Origin: an uncultured Candidatus Saccharibacteria bacterium
GTDB taxonomy: Bacteria; Patescibacteriota; Minisyncoccia; Portnoybacterales; UBA2143
Reading direction: 5' to 3'
Assembly (NCBI GenBank): GCA_964649795.1
Contig: CAZYQY010000001.1
Location: 11,711-67,180 of the forward strand
DNA: 55,470 bases
Part shown: positions 17,514 to 52,991 of the stretch, in pieces
Layout: each line of letters opens with the position of its first letter
Numbering within the stretch: the stretch's first letter is position 1
Made by a program: the position numbers and the translations under genes
The notes under the pieces: generated by a model
Seen by the model: only the letters and a program-made list of their open reading frames with translations
Told to the model about the DNA's origin: nothing
Databases searched by the model: none

Positions 17514-17589
17514 GCGCCTGTAGCTCAGTGGACAGAGCAAAGGATTTCTAATCCTTAGGTCGGGGGTTCAAATCCCTCCAGGCGTACCA
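17514..17589 (+). tRNA. tRNA-Arg (anticodon TCT), CCA encoded
   Basis: Hand-folded cloverleaf: GCGCCTG/CAGGCGT acceptor, anticodon loop TTTCTAA, T-loop TTCAAAT. Confidence 0.85.
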
Positions 17590-17592
17590 TAT

Positions 17593-17666
17593 GGTGCCTA
17601 TAGTTTAGCGGTAAAACTCCTCTTTGTGGAAGAGGTATCGAGGGTTCAACTCCCTCTAGGCACCCA
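17593..17666 (+). tRNA. tRNA-His (anticodon GTG) with encoded G-1
   Basis: Extra 5' G opposite C73, anticodon loop TTGTGGA, T-arm GAGGG-TTCAACT-CCCTC. Confidence 0.85.
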
Positions 17667-17700: not shown

Positions 17701-17726
17701 GTATTTTGTAATATCTTCTGACACAT

Positions 17727-17803
17727 TTAAGAGGCTTGTCCTTCAAAATGATGCTTCTTGCGAAGCAAGGACGTCATTTTAAGGACGATGCCTCTGGATT
17801 AAA
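17727..17803. repeat. palindromic repeat element, copy 1 (left island boundary)
   Basis: 'ttaagaggcttgtccttcaaaatgatg..loop..aaggacgtcattttaaggacgatgcctctggattaa'. Both arms are the reverse complement of those at 23336-23417. Confidence 0.85.
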
Positions 17804-17938
17804 AATAAAAAAATCCATAGAAAATGCTGACAAATTATATCAGCTTATTTCTGGTAAGATTATTACTAGAAATGAATTAAGAAAAATGCTTGGTCTTAAA
17901 AAAGTCCCAAGCATTAGTCCTAAAAAAAGGGATTAGTA

Positions 17939-18127
17939 TTATCTTCCAGGATTTATACGACCTGGTTTAGGATAAACTCCGCCACTTTGATTCTTCCCTT
18001 CTCTTTCTTTATCTAGTTCATCACCTATTTCTTTAATTTGTTTAAGCGCCTCTTTTATAGCAGAATAAGGGATGTTGATAGCATTACCACCATTAAAATA
18101 TTCTTTCATTAATTCTTTAGAAGTCAT
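17939..18127 (-). CDS. small hypothetical protein (62 aa from MTSKEL)
   Basis: ORF only, with a weak RBS. No family recognised. Confidence 0.35.
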   Translation of the reverse strand: MTSKELMKEYFNGGNAINIPYSAIKEALKQIKEIGDELDKEREGKNQSGGVYPKPGRINPGR

Positions 18128-18302
18128 ATTTTTATCTTTCTTTATTATTGATATTTTACATTCGACCTTTAACAATTGACAAAATTAATATATATGATAG
18201 AGTGTTAGCCTATTTAGCAAATTGAGTTATCCCCAGTTTAGTATTAACAAAGAATGACGGGATTAACAAAAAATGCTAAGATAGAAAAAGAGAAAAAAAT
18301 TG

Positions 18303-18389
18303 CGGAGAGGGAGGGATTCGAACCCTCAAAGCATTTCAGTGCTTAATCGCTTATAAGACGAAGCCGATACCATTTCGGTTAACCTCTCC
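18303..18389 (-). tRNA. aberrant class II (long variable arm) Ser-like tRNA gene; best fold gives anticodon TAT; possibly a pseudo-tRNA
   Basis: Perfect acceptor GGAGAGG/CCTCTCC with G73. T-arm GAGGG-TTCGAAT-CCCTC. Variable arm AAGCA..TGCTT. The D-arm spacing is irregular. The anticodon stem TTCGT/GCGAT carries the loop CTTATAA. Confidence 0.55.
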
Positions 18390-18444
18390 AACATCTCAAA
18401 CAAAGACACTCTTATTTTCAACGACAGGAGTGTTTTTGTTTTAA

Positions 18445-18470
18445 AATTAAAAACCCTATTTTATTAGGGC
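18445..18470 (-). terminator. Rho-independent terminator (minus strand) downstream of the 138-aa gene
   Basis: The minus strand reads GCCCTAATAAAATAGGGTTTTT. Confidence 0.6.
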
Positions 18471-18664
18471 ATTCCTAATATATTAACATTTGTTGTTTTT
18501 GGAGTCAATGTTAATATTGTGTATAATTAACTTATGAATAAACCAACCAAAAAAAGTTTCTAAATCTCCTAAGTAAAGCTATTCAGGAAACCTATTTCTA
18601 AAGATATAGTCTAGACAGACATCATCATTAGGGAAATCTCTTTGTAAATGTTTAATAGTGTATT

Positions 18665-19081
18665 TCATTTTATTAGCTTAATAAGTGGAATGATAATATA
18701 AGTAATAATGAAACCAATTATTATTCCAGCTATAAGAAACAATATATATACAGCACTTATATTCATTTGTTCCAATGCCTTACCAAAAAAGACATAACGC
18801 TTAATAAACATTCTCCCTTTATTGGTTACTCGGATAGTCAGTTTTTTCACTTCAATATAGTTATCATCTTTACAATCAATAATAAGTTTTATCATTTTCC
18901 GTTTTCCTATATTTTCTTTAATCATAAATCTTTTCATTATTAGTTTGGCAGGTATTCCAATTTCATCCATAGTTTGTATTACACTATCAGAAAACTCTGA
19001 ATTGTTATCCAGAAACTCATCAATATATTTAACTAATCTTCTTTTTAAAAGCATTACTTTTATTTTAGCAGAAATTGACAT
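18665..19081 (-). CDS. hypothetical protein with a C-terminal TM anchor
   Basis: ORF with a hydrophobic tail 'ISAVYILFLIAGIIIGFIITYIIIPLI'. No family recognised. Confidence 0.5.
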   Translation of the reverse strand: MSISAKIKVMLLKRRLVKYIDEFLDNNSEFSDSVIQTMDEIGIPAKLIMKRFMIKENIGKRKMIKLIIDCKDDNYIEVKKLTIRVTNKGRMFIKRYVFFGKALEQMNISAVYILFLIAGIIIGFIITYIIIPLIKLIK

Positions 19082-19230
19082 ATTTTTATAGTTTTTTCAC
19101 TTGTTAATAGGGTATGATTGTGCTTTTTTAGTGTGTTGTCAAAGAAGATAAAAATAGGTATAATTAAAATAATTAAACATTTACTTTGGAATTAAAGAAT
19201 ATCTTTTTGAGGAATGTTTTAAATAATTCT

Positions 19231-19296
19231 ATGTCGAAGGCGGATACACAAACTAAAGAAGAATTAGAGAAAATTGAGCAAGAATTAATTGGATAA
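19231..19296 (+). CDS. 21-codon acidic ORF (MSKADTQTKEELEKIEQELIG) between a promoter-like site and a terminator-like hairpin; may instead be an sRNA
   Basis: TTGTCA, 17 nt spacer, TATAAT at 19136-19164. Hairpin plus T-run at 19297-19322. No good RBS. Confidence 0.2.
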   Translation: MSKADTQTKEELEKIEQELIG

Positions 19297-19367
19297 AAAC
19301 CACCTTTTAGGCGGTTTTTTGATTGACCAAAAACAGCCATAAAGGTATGATTAAAGTAAGATTTATG

Positions 19368-19427
19368 GCTCAAGAGAACTGTCCTTAATTTATGTCATTT
19401 TAAGGATAATGCCTCTGAATTAAAAAA
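19368..19427. repeat. palindromic repeat element, partial copy 2
   Basis: 'ggctcaagagaactgtccttaatttatgtcattttaaggataatgcctctgaattaa'. The right arm is in the same orientation as copy 1. Confidence 0.8.
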
Positions 19428-19572
19428 ATAAAAATATTATAAAAACATAACATGAAAGATATATTTAAAAAATATATTCAATCAATCTCCTCTAAGTTTT
19501 TTTATAATGAAACTAGTGAGATGGACGAAGGGACTAGTGATTGAGGTTGAGGAATTGATTAAATAAAAATAT

Positions 19573-19863
19573 ATGACAAGAATCAAAGATTTACCAGAAG
19601 ATCAAAGACCAAGAGAAAAATTATTAAAATTTGGGCCAGAATCTTTGTCTGATAAAGAACTTTTGGCAATTTTAATTGGTCATGGTCTCAAAGGAAAATC
19701 TGCTTTAGATATAGCAGAAGAAATGCTGCTTGAATATAAAGACCTTAAGGGATTAGCAGGTAAACGTTTGGATGAATTTATGAAAATCAAAGGAATAAAA
19801 GAAGCAAAAATTATTAAAATTGCCGTGGCGTTTGAAATCGCAAAACGAATTTATTTCACATAG
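19573..19863 (+). pseudogene. radC: radC (UPF0758) N-terminal HhH fragment lacking the JAB/MPN domain
   Basis: 'RPREKLLKFGPESLSDKELLAILIGHGLKGKSALDIAEE' matches a RadC N-terminus. The ORF stops after 96 aa, directly at the methyltransferase gene. Confidence 0.7.
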
Positions 19864-19867
19864 CAGT

Positions 19868-22330
19868 ATGTCAAAAAAAGAAAACAAGATAACCATCACT
19901 GACCCATTTCAAAACAAAAAGCATATTAATTATGCCCTTGTAGAATCTACGCGCCCAATGATGTATAAGTCTTTAAAATATTGGGGTAAAAAACCACACA
20001 ATATTTTTAAGAAGTATATAGAAAACTATACAGAAGAAAACGAAATTGTGTTAGACGCATTTGCTGGCAGTGGTATTACTCCATTAGAAGCTGTACAGAT
20101 AAAAAGAAAAGCGGTTGCGGTAGATCTTAATCCCATTTCTACTTTTATGATTGGGATGTTAGCCAAACCACTTAACTATTCAAAGTTCGGGAAATATTAT
20201 AGCGAAATTTTGGAAAAACTTGTTAAAAAAGAAAAGGATATTGGTGTCTTTATTACAAAATGCGAAAAATGTGGAAGTATTACTAGGACTACAGGAGTTC
20301 ATTGGGATGGCGACACACCGATACTTATAAGGTATGAATGTTCTTGTGTTAAGGGTATTCAAGGGAAAAGTCCCGATGATTTTGATAAGCAAATTATCAA
20401 AAAATCAGACAGTTTAAAAATTCCTTTTTGGTATCCAAGGGATGAATTTCCAAAGACAGATTTTTTCAAATCTGTTCGTAAAGGAATTGGTGATCAGTAT
20501 TACAAACTTTGGACTAATAGGACTCTCTATTTGCTTTCGTTTTTATACAAAGAGATTGAAGATATTTATGACGAAGAAGTAAAAGATTTTTTGAAATTTG
20601 CTTTTATTTCAATGATACATCTTGTTACGATTATGGTTTCTGCAAGAAGACCAAAAAGCAAAAGACCTGATTCTGGAAGCTGGGGAAGACCTGCATTTAT
20701 TTTGCCAAAAAGACATATGGAGCAGAACCCAGTGATACTTTTTCAGCGAGCGGTGGAAGATAGGCAAGGAGTTATTAAAGCAAAGAAATCTTCAGAAAAA
20801 TTACTTGCTAGCAAAGTTAAAATAGCGAAGAATTTTCAGGAATTAGCAGATAATAAAAAAGACAAAAATTTACTGATTTTAACAATTGATGCCCTGGATT
20901 TATCGAGGAGTATTCCCGAAAATAGTGTGGATTATGTATTGACCGATCCACCTTATGGCGGACTCATTCAATATTTTAGTTTAAGTAGTCTCTGGGCAGT
21001 CTGGTTAAAACATAACAATTCAAAATTTGAAATCCCATATCAAGATGAAATAACAATTGAACACAAAAAAGACTTTGAGAGATATCATAATCTACTTACC
21101 AAGGCGTTGAGGGAAATTTACAAAGTATTAAAGCCTGGGCGTTATCTGACCCTAACTTTCCATAACAGAGAAATTAATGTTTGGAATTCAGTTATCAAAG
21201 CTGGCGCATATTCTGGTTTCGTTTTCGAAAAAATTCTCTATCAGCCAAATAAGAGAGTCTCCGAAGCTGGTGTTGCTATGCCGTACGGAAGTGCAATTAG
21301 TGATTATTACTTACGATTCAAAAAACCTGAAAAGACAAGAGTATCTGAACATCAAAAAATGAACAAAGAAGAATATGAGAGAATTGTTGTTAAGGCTACT
21401 AAAGATATTATCGCATTGAGAGGTGAACCAACTGAAATGACATTTATTTTGAATGGTATTTATACTGAGTTGTTTTCAACTGGGAAATTTTTTGAAGGCA
21501 ATCATGAAGATATTGTAAATATTCTTAGAGAAAATATTGGCAAGGAATTCGTACTCATTGAAAATAAGGGTGGAAAACTTGGACCAAAATGGTGGTTGAA
21601 AAATCCAGAGGATATGCTTTTCAAACAAGTGCCTCTATCAGATCGCGTTGAAAAAGTTGTGCTGGATATGTTGCGGGGAAATATAAAAGTTACATTCGAT
21701 GAAATACTACAAAAACTATTTATCACCTTCCCAAATGGATTAACACCAGATACGAAAGGGGTAATAGAGGTATTAAAAGAATATGCGACAACTACTGGTG
21801 ATGGTAGGTGGCGTTATAAACCAGAAGTAAATTATAGAGATTCTGAACATAGCGAAATGATTCATTACCTGTCAGAAATAGGGAAAAAGGCGGGTTATAA
21901 AGTTTGGATTGGCAGTAAAGAACAGGGGGATACTTTCAAAAACGAAAAATTATCAAAATATTGCACTGAACCAAATCTTGAACTTTCCGGATTCTCAAAT
22001 GATAAACTACGGAGAATAACAATGATAGATGTTCTTTGGTATGAAGATTCCTCCATTAAATATGTTTTTGAAGTTGAAAATAGCACTAGCATTACGTCTG
22101 CAATCGAGAGGGCTTCTCATATTCCAGAAGAATACGAGGTAAAAAGATTTATTGTTATTCCAGAAGAAAGACAGAAAATGCTTGAGAGAAAAATGGGTGA
22201 ACCAATGTTTCAAGAAGGTTATAATAAATATAAATGGCAAACTATTCATTACGACGCACTAAAAGATTTTTATAATTTACATAAAAGTGATAAAACACTT
22301 AAACGAAATGATTTGATTAATTTGAAATAA
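19868..22330 (+). CDS. large DNA methyltransferase with a Cys-containing insert and a C-terminal PD-(D/E)xK-like module; candidate fused R-M enzyme
   Basis: Motif X-I 'YWGKKP..VLDAFAGSGITPLEA' at the N-terminus. 'CEKCG..CSC' insert. Motif IV 'LTDPPYGG' about 290 aa later. C-terminus reads 'MIHYLSEIGKKAGYKVWIG...IDVLWYEDSSIKYVFEVENSTS'. Start set at MSKKENK. Confidence 0.7.
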   Translation: MSKKENKITITDPFQNKKHINYALVESTRPMMYKSLKYWGKKPHNIFKKYIENYTEENEIVLDAFAGSGITPLEAVQIKRKAVAVDLNPISTFMIGMLAKPLNYSKFGKYYSEILEKLVKKEKDIGVFITKCEKCGSITRTTGVHWDGDTPILIRYECSCVKGIQGKSPDDFDKQIIKKSDSLKIPFWYPRDEFPKTDFFKSVRKGIGDQYYKLWTNRTLYLLSFLYKEIEDIYDEEVKDFLKFAFISMIHLVTIMVSARRPKSKRPDSGSWGRPAFILPKRHMEQNPVILFQRAVEDRQGVIKAKKSSEKLLASKVKIAKNFQELADNKKDKNLLILTIDALDLSRSIPENSVDYVLTDPPYGGLIQYFSLSSLWAVWLKHNNSKFEIPYQDEITIEHKKDFERYHNLLTKALREIYKVLKPGRYLTLTFHNREINVWNSVIKAGAYSGFVFEKILYQPNKRVSEAGVAMPYGSAISDYYLRFKKPEKTRVSEHQKMNKEEYERIVVKATKDIIALRGEPTEMTFILNGIYTELFSTGKFFEGNHEDIVNILRENIGKEFVLIENKGGKLGPKWWLKNPEDMLFKQVPLSDRVEKVVLDMLRGNIKVTFDEILQKLFITFPNGLTPDTKGVIEVLKEYATTTGDGRWRYKPEVNYRDSEHSEMIHYLSEIGKKAGYKVWIGSKEQGDTFKNEKLSKYCTEPNLELSGFSNDKLRRITMIDVLWYEDSSIKYVFEVENSTSITSAIERASHIPEEYEVKRFIVIPEERQKMLERKMGEPMFQEGYNKYKWQTIHYDALKDFYNLHKSDKTLKRNDLINLK

Positions 22331-22334
22331 AATT

Positions 22335-23183
22335 ATGCCAAAAAAGAAGCCTCAAAAAAAAGGAAAATACGACAAGCGTAATATCCTTAATGATTTAACG
22401 GGCAAAGAGTGGTTATTATTAACTAAGAGTATTTGGATAAGTGAGAAATGTGCTGATGATAAATTTGCGTTTCAACACCCTGCCCCTTTTTTAATCAATG
22501 ACATAAAAAAATTGGTTAGATTTTTTACCAAAGAAAATATGACAGTTCTTGATCCATTTTGTGGTTCAGGAACAACTCTTGTTGCTAGTGCTCAAGAAAA
22601 TAGAAAAGGCATTGGTATAGATTTAAGTAGAAAATATTGCCAGATGAGCCGAAAGCGTTTGCAGGATATAAAGCTTAAAAAAAATCAACAGATAATTTGT
22701 GGCGATTCCCTTAAAAAAATATCTCAAATTAAAGGCAAAATTGATTATTGTGTAACCTCGCCACCATATCATAATATTTTAAGGCATAATGGTGGTGGAC
22801 TAAGAGATACGAAAGATAAAGATGTACGTAATGGCGCGCGGTTTGGCGTTGAATATTATTCAAATAATAAACTGGATTTAGGGAATCAAGTGGAGTACAA
22901 AGATTTTTTATCTTTGTTGAAATTGGCTATGGCGGAGGTTTATAAAAAATTAAGAGAAAAAAAACATTGTTCAATTATTATTAGCGACTTTACGGTAAAT
23001 AAAAAAGAAACAAATGCGAGCGGTGATGTTATAAGACTTATGCAAGATATAGGATTTGGTTTTGATGGCTCGGTTGTACTAGTTCAAGATAATAAACCAC
23101 TCTATCCTTTTGGCTATCCTTATGCTTATAAAATGAATCATCATCATCAATATATTTTGAATTTTAGGAAGAACGAGAGTTAA
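22335..23183 (+). CDS. DNA methyltransferase with an SPPY catalytic motif (N4-cytosine or N6-adenine type)
   Basis: 'FQHPAPF..VLDPFCGSGTTLVAS' followed by 'CVTSPPYHN'. Starts 4 nt after the upstream gene. Confidence 0.75.
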   Translation: MPKKKPQKKGKYDKRNILNDLTGKEWLLLTKSIWISEKCADDKFAFQHPAPFLINDIKKLVRFFTKENMTVLDPFCGSGTTLVASAQENRKGIGIDLSRKYCQMSRKRLQDIKLKKNQQIICGDSLKKISQIKGKIDYCVTSPPYHNILRHNGGGLRDTKDKDVRNGARFGVEYYSNNKLDLGNQVEYKDFLSLLKLAMAEVYKKLREKKHCSIIISDFTVNKKETNASGDVIRLMQDIGFGFDGSVVLVQDNKPLYPFGYPYAYKMNHHHQYILNFRKNES

Positions 23184-23335
23184 AAGTAAATTTTTGGATT
23201 TTAATAAGCAAAAACAGAATACGAGGATAATTAAAGATGAGATCGATGGGTAAAAAGAAAAAGGAAAGCAGGAAAAAGGGGAAAAGGCGTCAGAAGCCGT
23301 TTTAAAAATAAATAAAAGATTTGGAAGAAGTGGGG

Positions 23336-23417
23336 TTAATCCAGAGGCGTCGTCCTTAAAATGACGTCCTTTCGCCTTTGGCTCAAGAACATCATTTTGA
23401 AGGACAAGCCTCTTTAA
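23336..23417. repeat. palindromic repeat element, copy 3 (right island boundary, inverted relative to copy 1)
   Basis: 'ttaatccagaggcgtcgtccttaaaatgacgtcct...catcattttgaaggacaagcctctttaa'. Confidence 0.85.
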
Positions 23418-23430
23418 CTTTCTCAGAAAG

Positions 23431-23455
23431 CATCATTTTGAAGAACTGTCCTTAG
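23431..23455. repeat. half copy of the palindromic repeat
   Basis: 'catcattttgaagaactgtcctta'. Confidence 0.6.
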
Positions 23456-25171: not shown

Positions 25172-25657
25172 ATGCCGACTATTCATCAATTAGTTAAAAG
25201 ACCAAGAAAAATTTCAAAGAAGAAACCAAAAACGCCAGCTCTTGGCAAGAGTTTTAATTTGCTTAAAAACAAACCAAGCAAAACACACTCGCCTTTTAAG
25301 CGCGGCGTTTGCCTGAAAGTCCATACAGTTACTCCTAAAAAACCAAATTCAGCTTTGCGCAAAGTTGCCAGAGTCAGACTTACTAATGGTATGGAAGTAA
25401 CTGCCTATATTCCTGGAGAAGGGCACAATTTGCAAGAGCATTCAGTTATTTTAATTCGAGGCGGACGGGTTAAAGATTTGCCTGGAGTTCGTTATCATGT
25501 AGTAAGGGGAGTTTTAGATACAGAAGGAGTAGAAGGCAGGAAACAAAAAAGGAGCCGTTACGGAACTAAAAAACAAGGAGCTACAAAAAAAGCAGAAACA
25601 AGTAAAGAAGCAGCGGACATAGCTGAACCAGAAACCGAAAATAAAGAACAGTCCTAA
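25172..25657 (+). CDS. rpsL: 30S ribosomal protein S12, with a C-terminal extension
   Basis: 'MPTIHQLV', '[15 protein letters not shown]' and '[13 protein letters not shown]'. Confidence 0.95.
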
Positions 25658-25705
25658 AAATGACGCCCTTGTGCTCAAGGGACATCATTTTAAGAACTGT
25701 CCTTT
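25651..25705. repeat. palindromic repeat element, copy 4, in the rpsL-rpsG spacer
   Basis: 'gtcctaaaaatgacgcccttgtgctcaagggacatcattttaagaactgtcc'. It overlaps the rpsL stop codon. Confidence 0.8.
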
Positions 25706-25711
25706 AAATCT

Positions 25712-52714: not shown

Positions 52715-52991
52715 TTGCGGGGGCCGGACTCGAACCGGCGACCTCGAGGTTCTTGCATATTAACCATTTATTTCTAAATGGAATGGACTATCCCATCTTC
52801 CCATTGCTAATAGTGGGAAGTTCCCATTATAGTCTCTGAACCTTGTCGTCTAAGACGACCTTGGCTGCTGATTACCGAGAAATAAATCTGACGGCTTCCC
52901 AGCAATTTAGAGAATTTTTCCACAGAATGTTGCCATCCTGGGCCACAATTTTACTTATGGGCCTCGCGAGCTGCCACTGCTCCACCCCGCA
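52715..52991 (-). tRNA. initiator-type tRNA(CAT) gene interrupted by a 205-nt intron after anticodon position 36
   Basis: Exon 1 (52957-52991) is TGCGGGGTGGAGCAGTGGCAGCTCGCGAGGCCCAT. Exon 2 (52715-52751) is AACCTCGAGGTCGCCGGTTCGAGTCCGGCCCCCGCAA. Joined, they form a cloverleaf with an A11:U24 pair and an fMet-like acceptor and T-arm. Confidence 0.8.
52752..52956 (-). other. group I intron (IC3-like, no ORF)
   Basis: The 5' splice site follows a U that can wobble-pair with the intron GUGG. The intron ends in G. The core reads 'CCAAGG-hairpin-AAGGTTCAGAGACTATAATGGG'. It is 205 nt long. Confidence 0.7.

Follow-up and report, generated by a model that had tools for sequence, protein, structure and literature searches.

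A Ser-type tRNA with a UAU anticodon and its link to IS1595-family transposases in a CPR bacterium

What does a tRNA do whose body is of the serine type and whose anticodon, UAU, belongs to the isoleucine codon AUA? Ser-type tRNAs with Ile anticodons form a published class without established function. A gene of this kind lies on the minus strand of the 55,470-nt window (the whole stretch of contig CAZYQY010000001.1 that we analyzed) in the genome of a CPR bacterium. We favor, with reservations, the reading that it is orphaned cargo of an IS1595-family element, still conserved and probably serylated and AUA-reading.

The tRNA gene and its serine-type body

The preliminary description of the locus had proposed a Ser-type body with a UAU anticodon, and ARAGORN drew the same fold. 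The program called a class II tRNA-Ile(tat) of 88 nt at 18302-18389(-), anticodon UAU. A canonical Ser or Leu anticodon, which had been named as grounds for giving up the UAU reading, came from none of the predictors used. In the ARAGORN fold, the acceptor stem has 7 bp (GGAGAGG/CCTCTCC) and the discriminator is G73; the T-arm is GAGGG-UUCGAAU-CCCUC. The variable arm of 18 nt, U-AAGCA-CUGAAA-UGCUU-U (1+5+6+5+1), contains a 5-bp stem. The anticodon stem (UUCGU/GCGAU, 5 bp) has a U27.U43 mismatch, a U31.G39 closing pair and the pair G30-C40, and it carries the canonical loop CUUAUAA (U33, A37, A38). The D-arm, previously described as irregular, was so only in its connector: 4 nt (UUAA) precede the stem instead of the usual 2 nt. 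The stem itself proved regular in the MFE fold, with 4 bp (CCGA/UCGG) closing a 7-nt loop that contains GG (AAUGGUA). C26 follows the D-arm, and CCA is absent from the gene sequence.

The MFE fold of the tRNA was a cloverleaf of -29.5 kcal/mol (z = -3.0), equalled by 1 of 200 shuffles. With Infernal, the Rfam tRNA model (RF00005) gave 33.6 bits against a gathering threshold of 29 (E 0.0029, whole window). This was the lowest score among the 43 tRNA matches of the genome; the others reached 54-77 bits. Two other assignments were tried and rejected. The tRNA-Sec model (RF01852) scored 39.7 bits, below its gathering threshold of 47, and the anticodon is UAU rather than UCA, on a 7/5 rather than an 8/5 branch. 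An 8/4 or 9/3 fold of the allo-tRNA kind is impossible, because its eighth pair would be U8.C65.

The host genome (572 kb, 98.8% complete, approximately 32% G+C) fits a CPR/Patescibacteria cell in size and base composition. It has a full class II tRNA set according to ARAGORN, comprising 4 Ser, 5 Leu and 1 Tyr genes. The acceptor stem, G73 and the next C of the island tRNA are those of the host tRNA-Ser(UGA) (C4:2321-2408) and tRNA-Ser(CGA) (C4:43912-44000). The length of 87 nt to position 73 and the length and geometry of the variable arm are also common to them, with 18 nt in tRNA-Ser(UGA) and the island tRNA alike. The island tRNA differs from both in its anticodon, its T-stem and a D-stem 5' half that is displaced by 2 nt, and the overall identity is 52-55%. 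Moreover, its gene belongs to a mobile element, and searches of related genomes did not recover it. The suggestion that it might be a degenerate Leu(UAA) or host Ser tRNA thus lost ground; in the former case, G73 and the Ser acceptor stood against the assignment, and identity to the host tRNA-Leu(UAA) was just 48%.

SerRS recognizes its tRNAs mainly by the long variable arm; G30-C40 also counts among the Ser elements, and G73 acts as an antideterminant for LeuRS and TyrRS (PMC9976931). The island tRNA has a Ser-type long variable arm (stem of at least 4-5 bp), G73, Ser-type acceptor pairs and G30-C40. It has UAU in place of a Ser anticodon (NGA or GCU), and a D-arm of 4, 4 and 7 nt or bp in connector, stem and loop instead of the Ser-type 2-nt connector, 3-bp stem and large loop. 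The class I body, A73 and Ile-type acceptor of tRNA-Ile2(UAU) are missing from it. Because its identity elements (acceptor, G73, G30-C40, variable-arm length) are of the Ser type, it should be charged by the host SerRS, which is full-length and bacterial-type (482 bits).

Whether the host has tilS and a normal tRNA-Ile2 had been raised as a check. At C4:31279-31356, the host has a canonical tRNA-Ile(UAU) of class I, with A73 and a 5-nt variable region (73 bits, compared with 33.6 bits for the island tRNA). TilS was not found in the genome, the best match reaching 19.6 bits at a cut-off of 93.6. The anticodon loop of the host tRNA-Ile(UAU), CUUAUAA, is identical to that of the island tRNA, so the latter should read the same codon as the canonical tRNA-Ile(UAU) of TilS-less bacteria. 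Since no TilS was found, the host IleRS must recognize the UAU anticodon, and IleRS identity is largely anticodon-based. These points would suit a spare AUA decoder that is charged with isoleucine through its anticodon and causes no mistranslation. We consider this very improbable: both host tRNA-Ile genes (UAU and GAU) have A73 and the common acceptor GGGCGUG, whereas the island tRNA has G73 and an acceptor identical to that of tRNA-Ser, together with the long arm that dominates SerRS recognition (PMC9976931). In addition, active allo-tRNAs inserted Ser or Ala according to their body and not their anticodon (PMC5389517, PMC7609411).

Returning to serine, we regard the island tRNA as probably serylated and AUA-reading; the bacterial-type SerRS of the host would charge it, and it would then read AUA. 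The earlier remark that AUA is common in this genome was borne out, the codon ranking 12th in the host with 23.7 per 1000, that is, 2.4% of all codons and 24% of the Ile codons. An efficient Ser-tRNA(UAU) would hit 2.4% of codons and should be strongly deleterious, which counts against our reading. The irregular D-arm connector and the weak anticodon stem would probably make the tRNA a poor competitor of the host tRNA-Ile(UAU). Our confidence that it inserts serine at AUA in this host is low to moderate.

A decayed element and its second copy

The locus lies between the single tRNA-His gene of the host and mscS (Table 1). Its description as an island agreed with the comparison inside the genus, where the content was strain-specific: one relative (G002) carries 7.8 kb of different, unrelated DNA between tRNA-His and mscS, and in another (G001) the bounding repeats stand side by side at a contig end. 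As these two genomes differ here, the locus is strain-variable. The island, 17726-23446, is bracketed by inverted hairpin repeats of approximately 80 nt, which belong to a palindromic family (GAGGC..GTCCTTCAAAATGA..TCATTTTAAGGAC..GCCTC). Further copies were found at 19394-19435, at C2:54548-54580 and C2:56407-56472, and by tRNA-His in G001.

Table 1. Features at the variable locus of the window. L083 denotes the second copy of the module; fractions after it are identical positions in the alignment of the two.
Feature	Position	Strand	Basis
Host tRNA-Arg(UCU) and tRNA-His(GUG), flanking the variable locus	17514..17665	+	ARAGORN; each the sole gene for its anticodon
Left hairpin repeat (~80 nt) bounding the island	17726..17802	+	96-97% inverted match to 23336-23446
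Conserved 3' block with two terminator-like hairpins	17810..17938	-	L083 115/129
ORF62, small conserved protein downstream of the tRNA, same strand	17939..18127	-	L083 counterpart 59% identical
3' trailer with T-run (CAATTTTTTTCTCTTTTTC)	18281..18302	-	Read from the sequence; L083 18/22
Class II tRNA, anticodon UAU, Ser-type acceptor and G73	18303..18389	-	ARAGORN, Rfam tRNA, MFE cloverleaf, L083 86/87
Conserved 5' leader, hairpin ACACUC-(16 nt)-GAGUGU	18390..18450	-	L083 59/61
Conserved block between transposase stub and tRNA	18521..18583	-	L083 54/63
IS1595-family transposase N-terminal stub, 29 codons (MKYTIKHLQRDFPNDDVCLDYIFRNRFPE, then stop)	18582..18668	-	tblastn
ORF138, hypothetical protein, hydrophobic C-terminus	18665..19081	-	ORF list
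Right hairpin repeat bounding the island	23336..23446	-	Inverted relative to 17726-17802

Besides the tRNA, the island contains small ORFs, DNA methyltransferase genes and a RadC gene truncated to an N-terminal fragment. At 19573-23183 (+), the 96-aa RadC fragment (UPF0758_N only) is followed by proteins of 836 aa and 282 aa with N6/N4 DNA methyltransferase domains, and no restriction enzyme was recognized in this stretch. ORF138 had no Pfam or PHROG match. Two features elsewhere in the window deserve mention. Between rpsL and rpsG, a 64-nt segment (25644-25707) has at least 35 copies at 87-95% identity in G002; it resembles a MITE-type repeat that has multiplied in the sister species. A group I intron at 52764-52966 (-) (Rfam 75.4 bits) adjoins tRNA-Met and tRNA-Asp. 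Since ARAGORN shows just one intact tRNA(CAU) in the genome, this intron probably splits the other one.

A search for near-identical tRNAs, in which one genome per prokaryotic species was scanned, yielded one match, L083, on a 2.5-kb contig of an approximately 800-kb MAG. The EF-G proteins of the host and the L083 genome are 58% identical; the corresponding values are 90-92% for the genus, 76% for the family and 71% for the order. Each of the two loci contains a transposase remnant. In the window, the stub precedes the tRNA by 190 nt on the same strand, its ATG overlapping the stop of ORF138 (ATGA). An intact IS1595 transposase is encoded on contig C5 of the host, and the stub matches its residues 4-31 (16 of 28 identical, E 9e-13). 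L083 has, at the same position, a C-terminal transposase remnant with an in-frame stop, which is followed by the block that matches 18521..18583. Neither of these short remnants had a Pfam match; the stub receives no score because it is too short. From the N-terminal stub in one copy and the C-terminal remnant in the other we infer a common ancestor, an element in which transposase, tRNA and ORF62 followed one another; its transposase would have decayed differently in the two copies, whereas the tRNA stayed intact in both. The left end of the element is lost with the deletion. The right end is likely at about 17810, because the L083 homology stops there. Next to it, the conserved 3' block contains the hairpins AATGCTTGG..CCAAGCATT and GCTGA..TCAGC plus T-runs, with a terminator-like site at 17844-17826.

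ORF62 has two further Patescibacteria homologues (P0002 and P0003, 82% and 68% identity), which makes a family of four members so far, all of Patescibacteria-type sequence. It had no Pfam or PHROG match, no toxin or antitoxin family was recognized in it, and a profile search of viral contigs returned nothing.

Conservation within the module is uneven. Together, tRNA and leader show 3 differences in 148 nt, and the only one in the tRNA is U27 to C, at position 27.43, which is unpaired anyway. The blocks 17810-17938 and 18521-18583 are 89% and 86% identical, and the ORF62 coding sequence 65%. Identity drops to 41% in the 70 nt upstream of the leader and to 45% in the downstream spacer. No other part of the module is as well conserved as the tRNA, and the two genomes are phylogenetically far apart. 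The comparison, which covers two sequences, one of them on a 2.5-kb contig that may have been binned wrongly, thus speaks for purifying selection on the tRNA as an RNA and for horizontal transfer of the module. We have moderate confidence that the tRNA is still functional.

Beyond L083, the distribution is narrow. The tRNA with its leader was absent from all 58 other genomes of the order (58/58), and BLAST of the tRNA in 60 relatives returned only generic T-arm matches. The class II UAU pattern had the host as its sole match in 400 genomes of the class, the exact D-arm pattern had no match in metagenome contigs, and the D-arm/T-arm pattern gave nothing in viral contigs. At the DNA level, the variant of the window occurred in salt-marsh metagenome runs, its likely source, and that of L083 in two groundwater runs, with no new variants; the sequencing runs listed as holding the tRNA(UAU) DNA included no RNA run.

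The gene might then be a decaying relic, an unexpressed pseudogene of a dead IS whose likeness to L083 reflects recent common origin and not selection. The transposase is dead in both copies, and the tRNA was not found in two same-genus genomes or the rest of the order. A consensus scan for a sigma-70 site inside the leader (18390..18450) found none; a candidate weak promoter, TTGAAA-17 nt-TGAGAT, was read there by eye and ends 4 nt before G1. Pseudogenes of allo-tRNA(UAU) with disrupted pairs have been described (PMC5389517). The lack of a consensus promoter, the lowest tRNA score in the genome, the 4-nt connector and the U27.U43 and U31.G39 oppositions in the anticodon stem fit a relic and count against our main reading. 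Nevertheless, we find a relic unlikely. In the same L083 alignment the spacers have fallen to 41-45%, ORF62 to 65% and the other blocks to 86-89%, and if the 148 nt had diverged as far as the other conserved blocks (approximately 10%), they should show about 15 differences instead of 3, the single one in the tRNA being on an unpaired position. The pseudo-tRNA left by island integration, which the preliminary description had listed, is likewise disfavored, because the tRNA is the best conserved part of a module held in common with a distant genome.

IS1595-family transposases and fixed ATA codons

We scanned for the wider class of Ser-type long-arm tRNAs with a CUUAUAA loop, which gave more than 119 species-genome loci and 31 metagenome loci; the scan patterns required CTTATAA and say nothing on how common other anticodons are. 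ARAGORN recognized 80 long tRNA(UAU) genes among these loci. Forms with the 8/4 split, similar to allo-tRNAs, came from Planctomycetota and Acidobacteriota, and 7/5 Ser-like bodies from Proteobacteria, Bacteroidota, Clostridia, Acidobacteriota and low-G+C contigs. Neighbor-ORF clustering and Pfam (zinc ribbon plus DDE) showed that an IS1595-family transposase adjoins 35 of the 80 long tRNA(UAU) loci. It stands upstream on the same strand at 31 of them, 257-1752 nt away. The closest relatives of the window tRNA after L083, namely L164 and L167 (82%), are also transposase-linked.

The window repeats this arrangement. Its stub matches the N-terminus of an intact family member (PF12762, PF12760) in the same genome, and the transposase-then-tRNA order is that of the 31 other loci. 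The adjacent same-strand transposase with its zinc ribbon and DDE domain persists as a remnant only, cut to 29 codons. We state with high confidence that 18302-18389(-) is a real tRNA gene and IS cargo. The preliminary description mentions neither this cargo origin nor the published class of Ser-type tRNAs with UAU anticodons.

Other genes of this anticodon have different settings. Two single Planctomycetota MAGs (contig pairs L034/L065 and L063/L084) each have more than one 8/4-type tRNA(UAU) gene, and the copies have only the tRNA in common (92-151 nt). The Planctomycetota loci fall outside the IS1595-transposase set. On IMG/VR phage contigs of 101-347 kb, we found UAU tRNAs of 90-93 nt (L027:4860-4951, L030:71-163 and L031:7824-7913) in which the variable region is long, the anticodon stem has 6 bp and the discriminator is A or T. 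The phage-contig genes were considered as relatives of the window tRNA and rejected as a different lineage, with A73 in the general-pattern matches.

The transposases of intact relatives carry a codon signature. We aligned the codons of 19 distinct transposases from six lineages with less than 70% amino-acid identity. In column 40 (codon 4 of the protein), ATA was used for 12 of 12 Ile codons, in column 321 for 10 of 10 and in column 329 for 13 of 13. The 19 other Ile-rich columns contained ATC or ATT, with 1 ATA in approximately 190 codons, and third positions at invariant four-fold sites were just 40% identical among the transposases. Homologues without ATA at the fixed columns carry varied residues (K/A/G/V/P; Y/V/N/K/S), so the three columns tolerate substitution. 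We read the fixed ATA as a probable sign of selection on the codon itself. The signature was seen in intact GC-rich relatives; two short CPR remnants have ATT and GTG at the retained columns, and this lack of ATA counts against the main reading.

Because the transposases of intact relatives keep AUA at three fixed, residue-tolerant positions, we infer that the element may supply its own AUA decoder for its own transposase, either to license translation or to insert serine. A gating circuit based on AUA would hardly work in the present host, where AUA is not rare. In our literature search, no paper connected Ser-type tRNA(UAU) with IS1595 or with fixed AUA codons. The own-decoder idea can be tested directly on the ATA codons that are fixed in intact transposases.

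A further reading is that of a tRNA-like RNA without a role in decoding. Six converted allo-tRNA(UAU) variants supported no translation in E. coli and two were toxic (PMC5389517), which counts against our reading. The authors of that work proposed a non-translational role (PMC5389517), and a review repeats the account (PMC7609411). The window RNA could similarly be an element of processing, stability or regulation, or a partner in a toxin-antitoxin-like pair, and the fully conserved leader hairpin and the conserved small ORF downstream do form one co-oriented module with it. We hold this to be quite improbable: the fixed ATA codons of the intact elements point to codon reading, the CUUAUAA loop is canonical and identical to that of the host tRNA-Ile(UAU), and ORF62 has no recognizable toxin or antitoxin family.

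The sequence of events that we favor, that of an orphaned decoder, would run as follows. The tRNA came as cargo of an IS1595-family element composed of transposase, leader, tRNA(UAU), ORF62 and terminators, which landed in the variable locus beside tRNA-His. The transposase was then presumably deleted to the 29-codon stub, leaving an orphaned tRNA that selection may have kept almost unchanged. The window copy shows that a cargo tRNA can persist after the loss of its transposase, apparently under purifying selection, in a host that commonly uses AUA.

The same genome contains a second tRNA with mismatched body and anticodon. At C5:33470-33556 (+) (L023:1469-1555) lies a class II tRNA of the Leu type with the anticodon CGU (Thr codon ACG), acceptor GCCGCAG and A73 (Rfam 54 bits). 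It stands 108 nt upstream of the intact IS1595 transposase (L023:1664-2494), its flanks pair as a 7-bp helix (TTCACAA/TTGTGAA), and it was not found in 60 relatives. ACG occurs once in this transposase (T145); of 19 homologues, 14 have Leu at that column and the others M, I, V or A, which suggests a private ACG-to-Leu recoding by the C5 element. Elsewhere the host genome contains a canonical tRNA-Thr(CGU), and it uses ACG rarely (3.2 per 1000).

The most far-reaching combination is that the orphan tRNA is expressed, serylated and inserts serine at AUA at a low rate, and that the C5 element recodes its single ACG to Leu. We regard this combination as doubtful. If it were true, the window would hold a naturally maintained, horizontally transferable mistranslating tRNA that was selected after the death of its transposase.

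Comparison with known systems

The nearest published class is that of the allo-tRNAs, which combine Ser identity features and a long variable arm with an 8/4 or 9/3 acceptor/T split (Mukai et al. 2017, PMC5389517). Their anticodons are diverse, UAU being the most abundant; members of the allo-tRNA(UAU) group have changes that weaken their stems, and their neighbors include transposon-related and toxin-antitoxin genes (PMC5389517). The window tRNA is alike in its long variable arm, G73, Ser-type identity, predominant non-Ser anticodon UAU, stem irregularities and transposon association. It has none of the features proper to allo-tRNAs, that is, the 8/4 or 9/3 split, the long, tRNA-Sec-like D-stem with a tetraloop and the 6-bp anticodon stem. 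Instead, it is a 7/5 molecule whose connector has 4 nt; its D-stem of 4 bp closes a 7-nt loop with GG, and its anticodon stem has 5 bp. The reported hosts differ as well, being Clostridia, Proteobacteria and Acidobacteria for allo-tRNAs and a CPR bacterium for the window tRNA. Because the 8/4 or 9/3 split and the Sec-like D-arm are absent, we do not file the window tRNA as an allo-tRNA proper and would place it beside allo-tRNA(UAU) as a form of like kind with a 7/5 branch.

A eukaryotic parallel exists in the nematode nev-tRNAs, class II tRNAs that receive Leu although their anticodons are those of Ile or Gly. Like the window tRNA, nev-tRNA-Ile(UAU) has a long variable arm and a body identity at odds with its UAU anticodon. 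It differs in being eukaryotic and of the Leu rather than the Ser type, and it is not known as transposon cargo.

Set beside these systems, the copy described here extends the class of Ser-type tRNA(UAU) to CPR bacteria and to ordinary 7/5 cloverleaves, and ties it to IS1595. If charged with serine, it would be a natural mobile tRNA that alters the meaning of a sense codon, either for one mobile gene or at a low level across the proteome.
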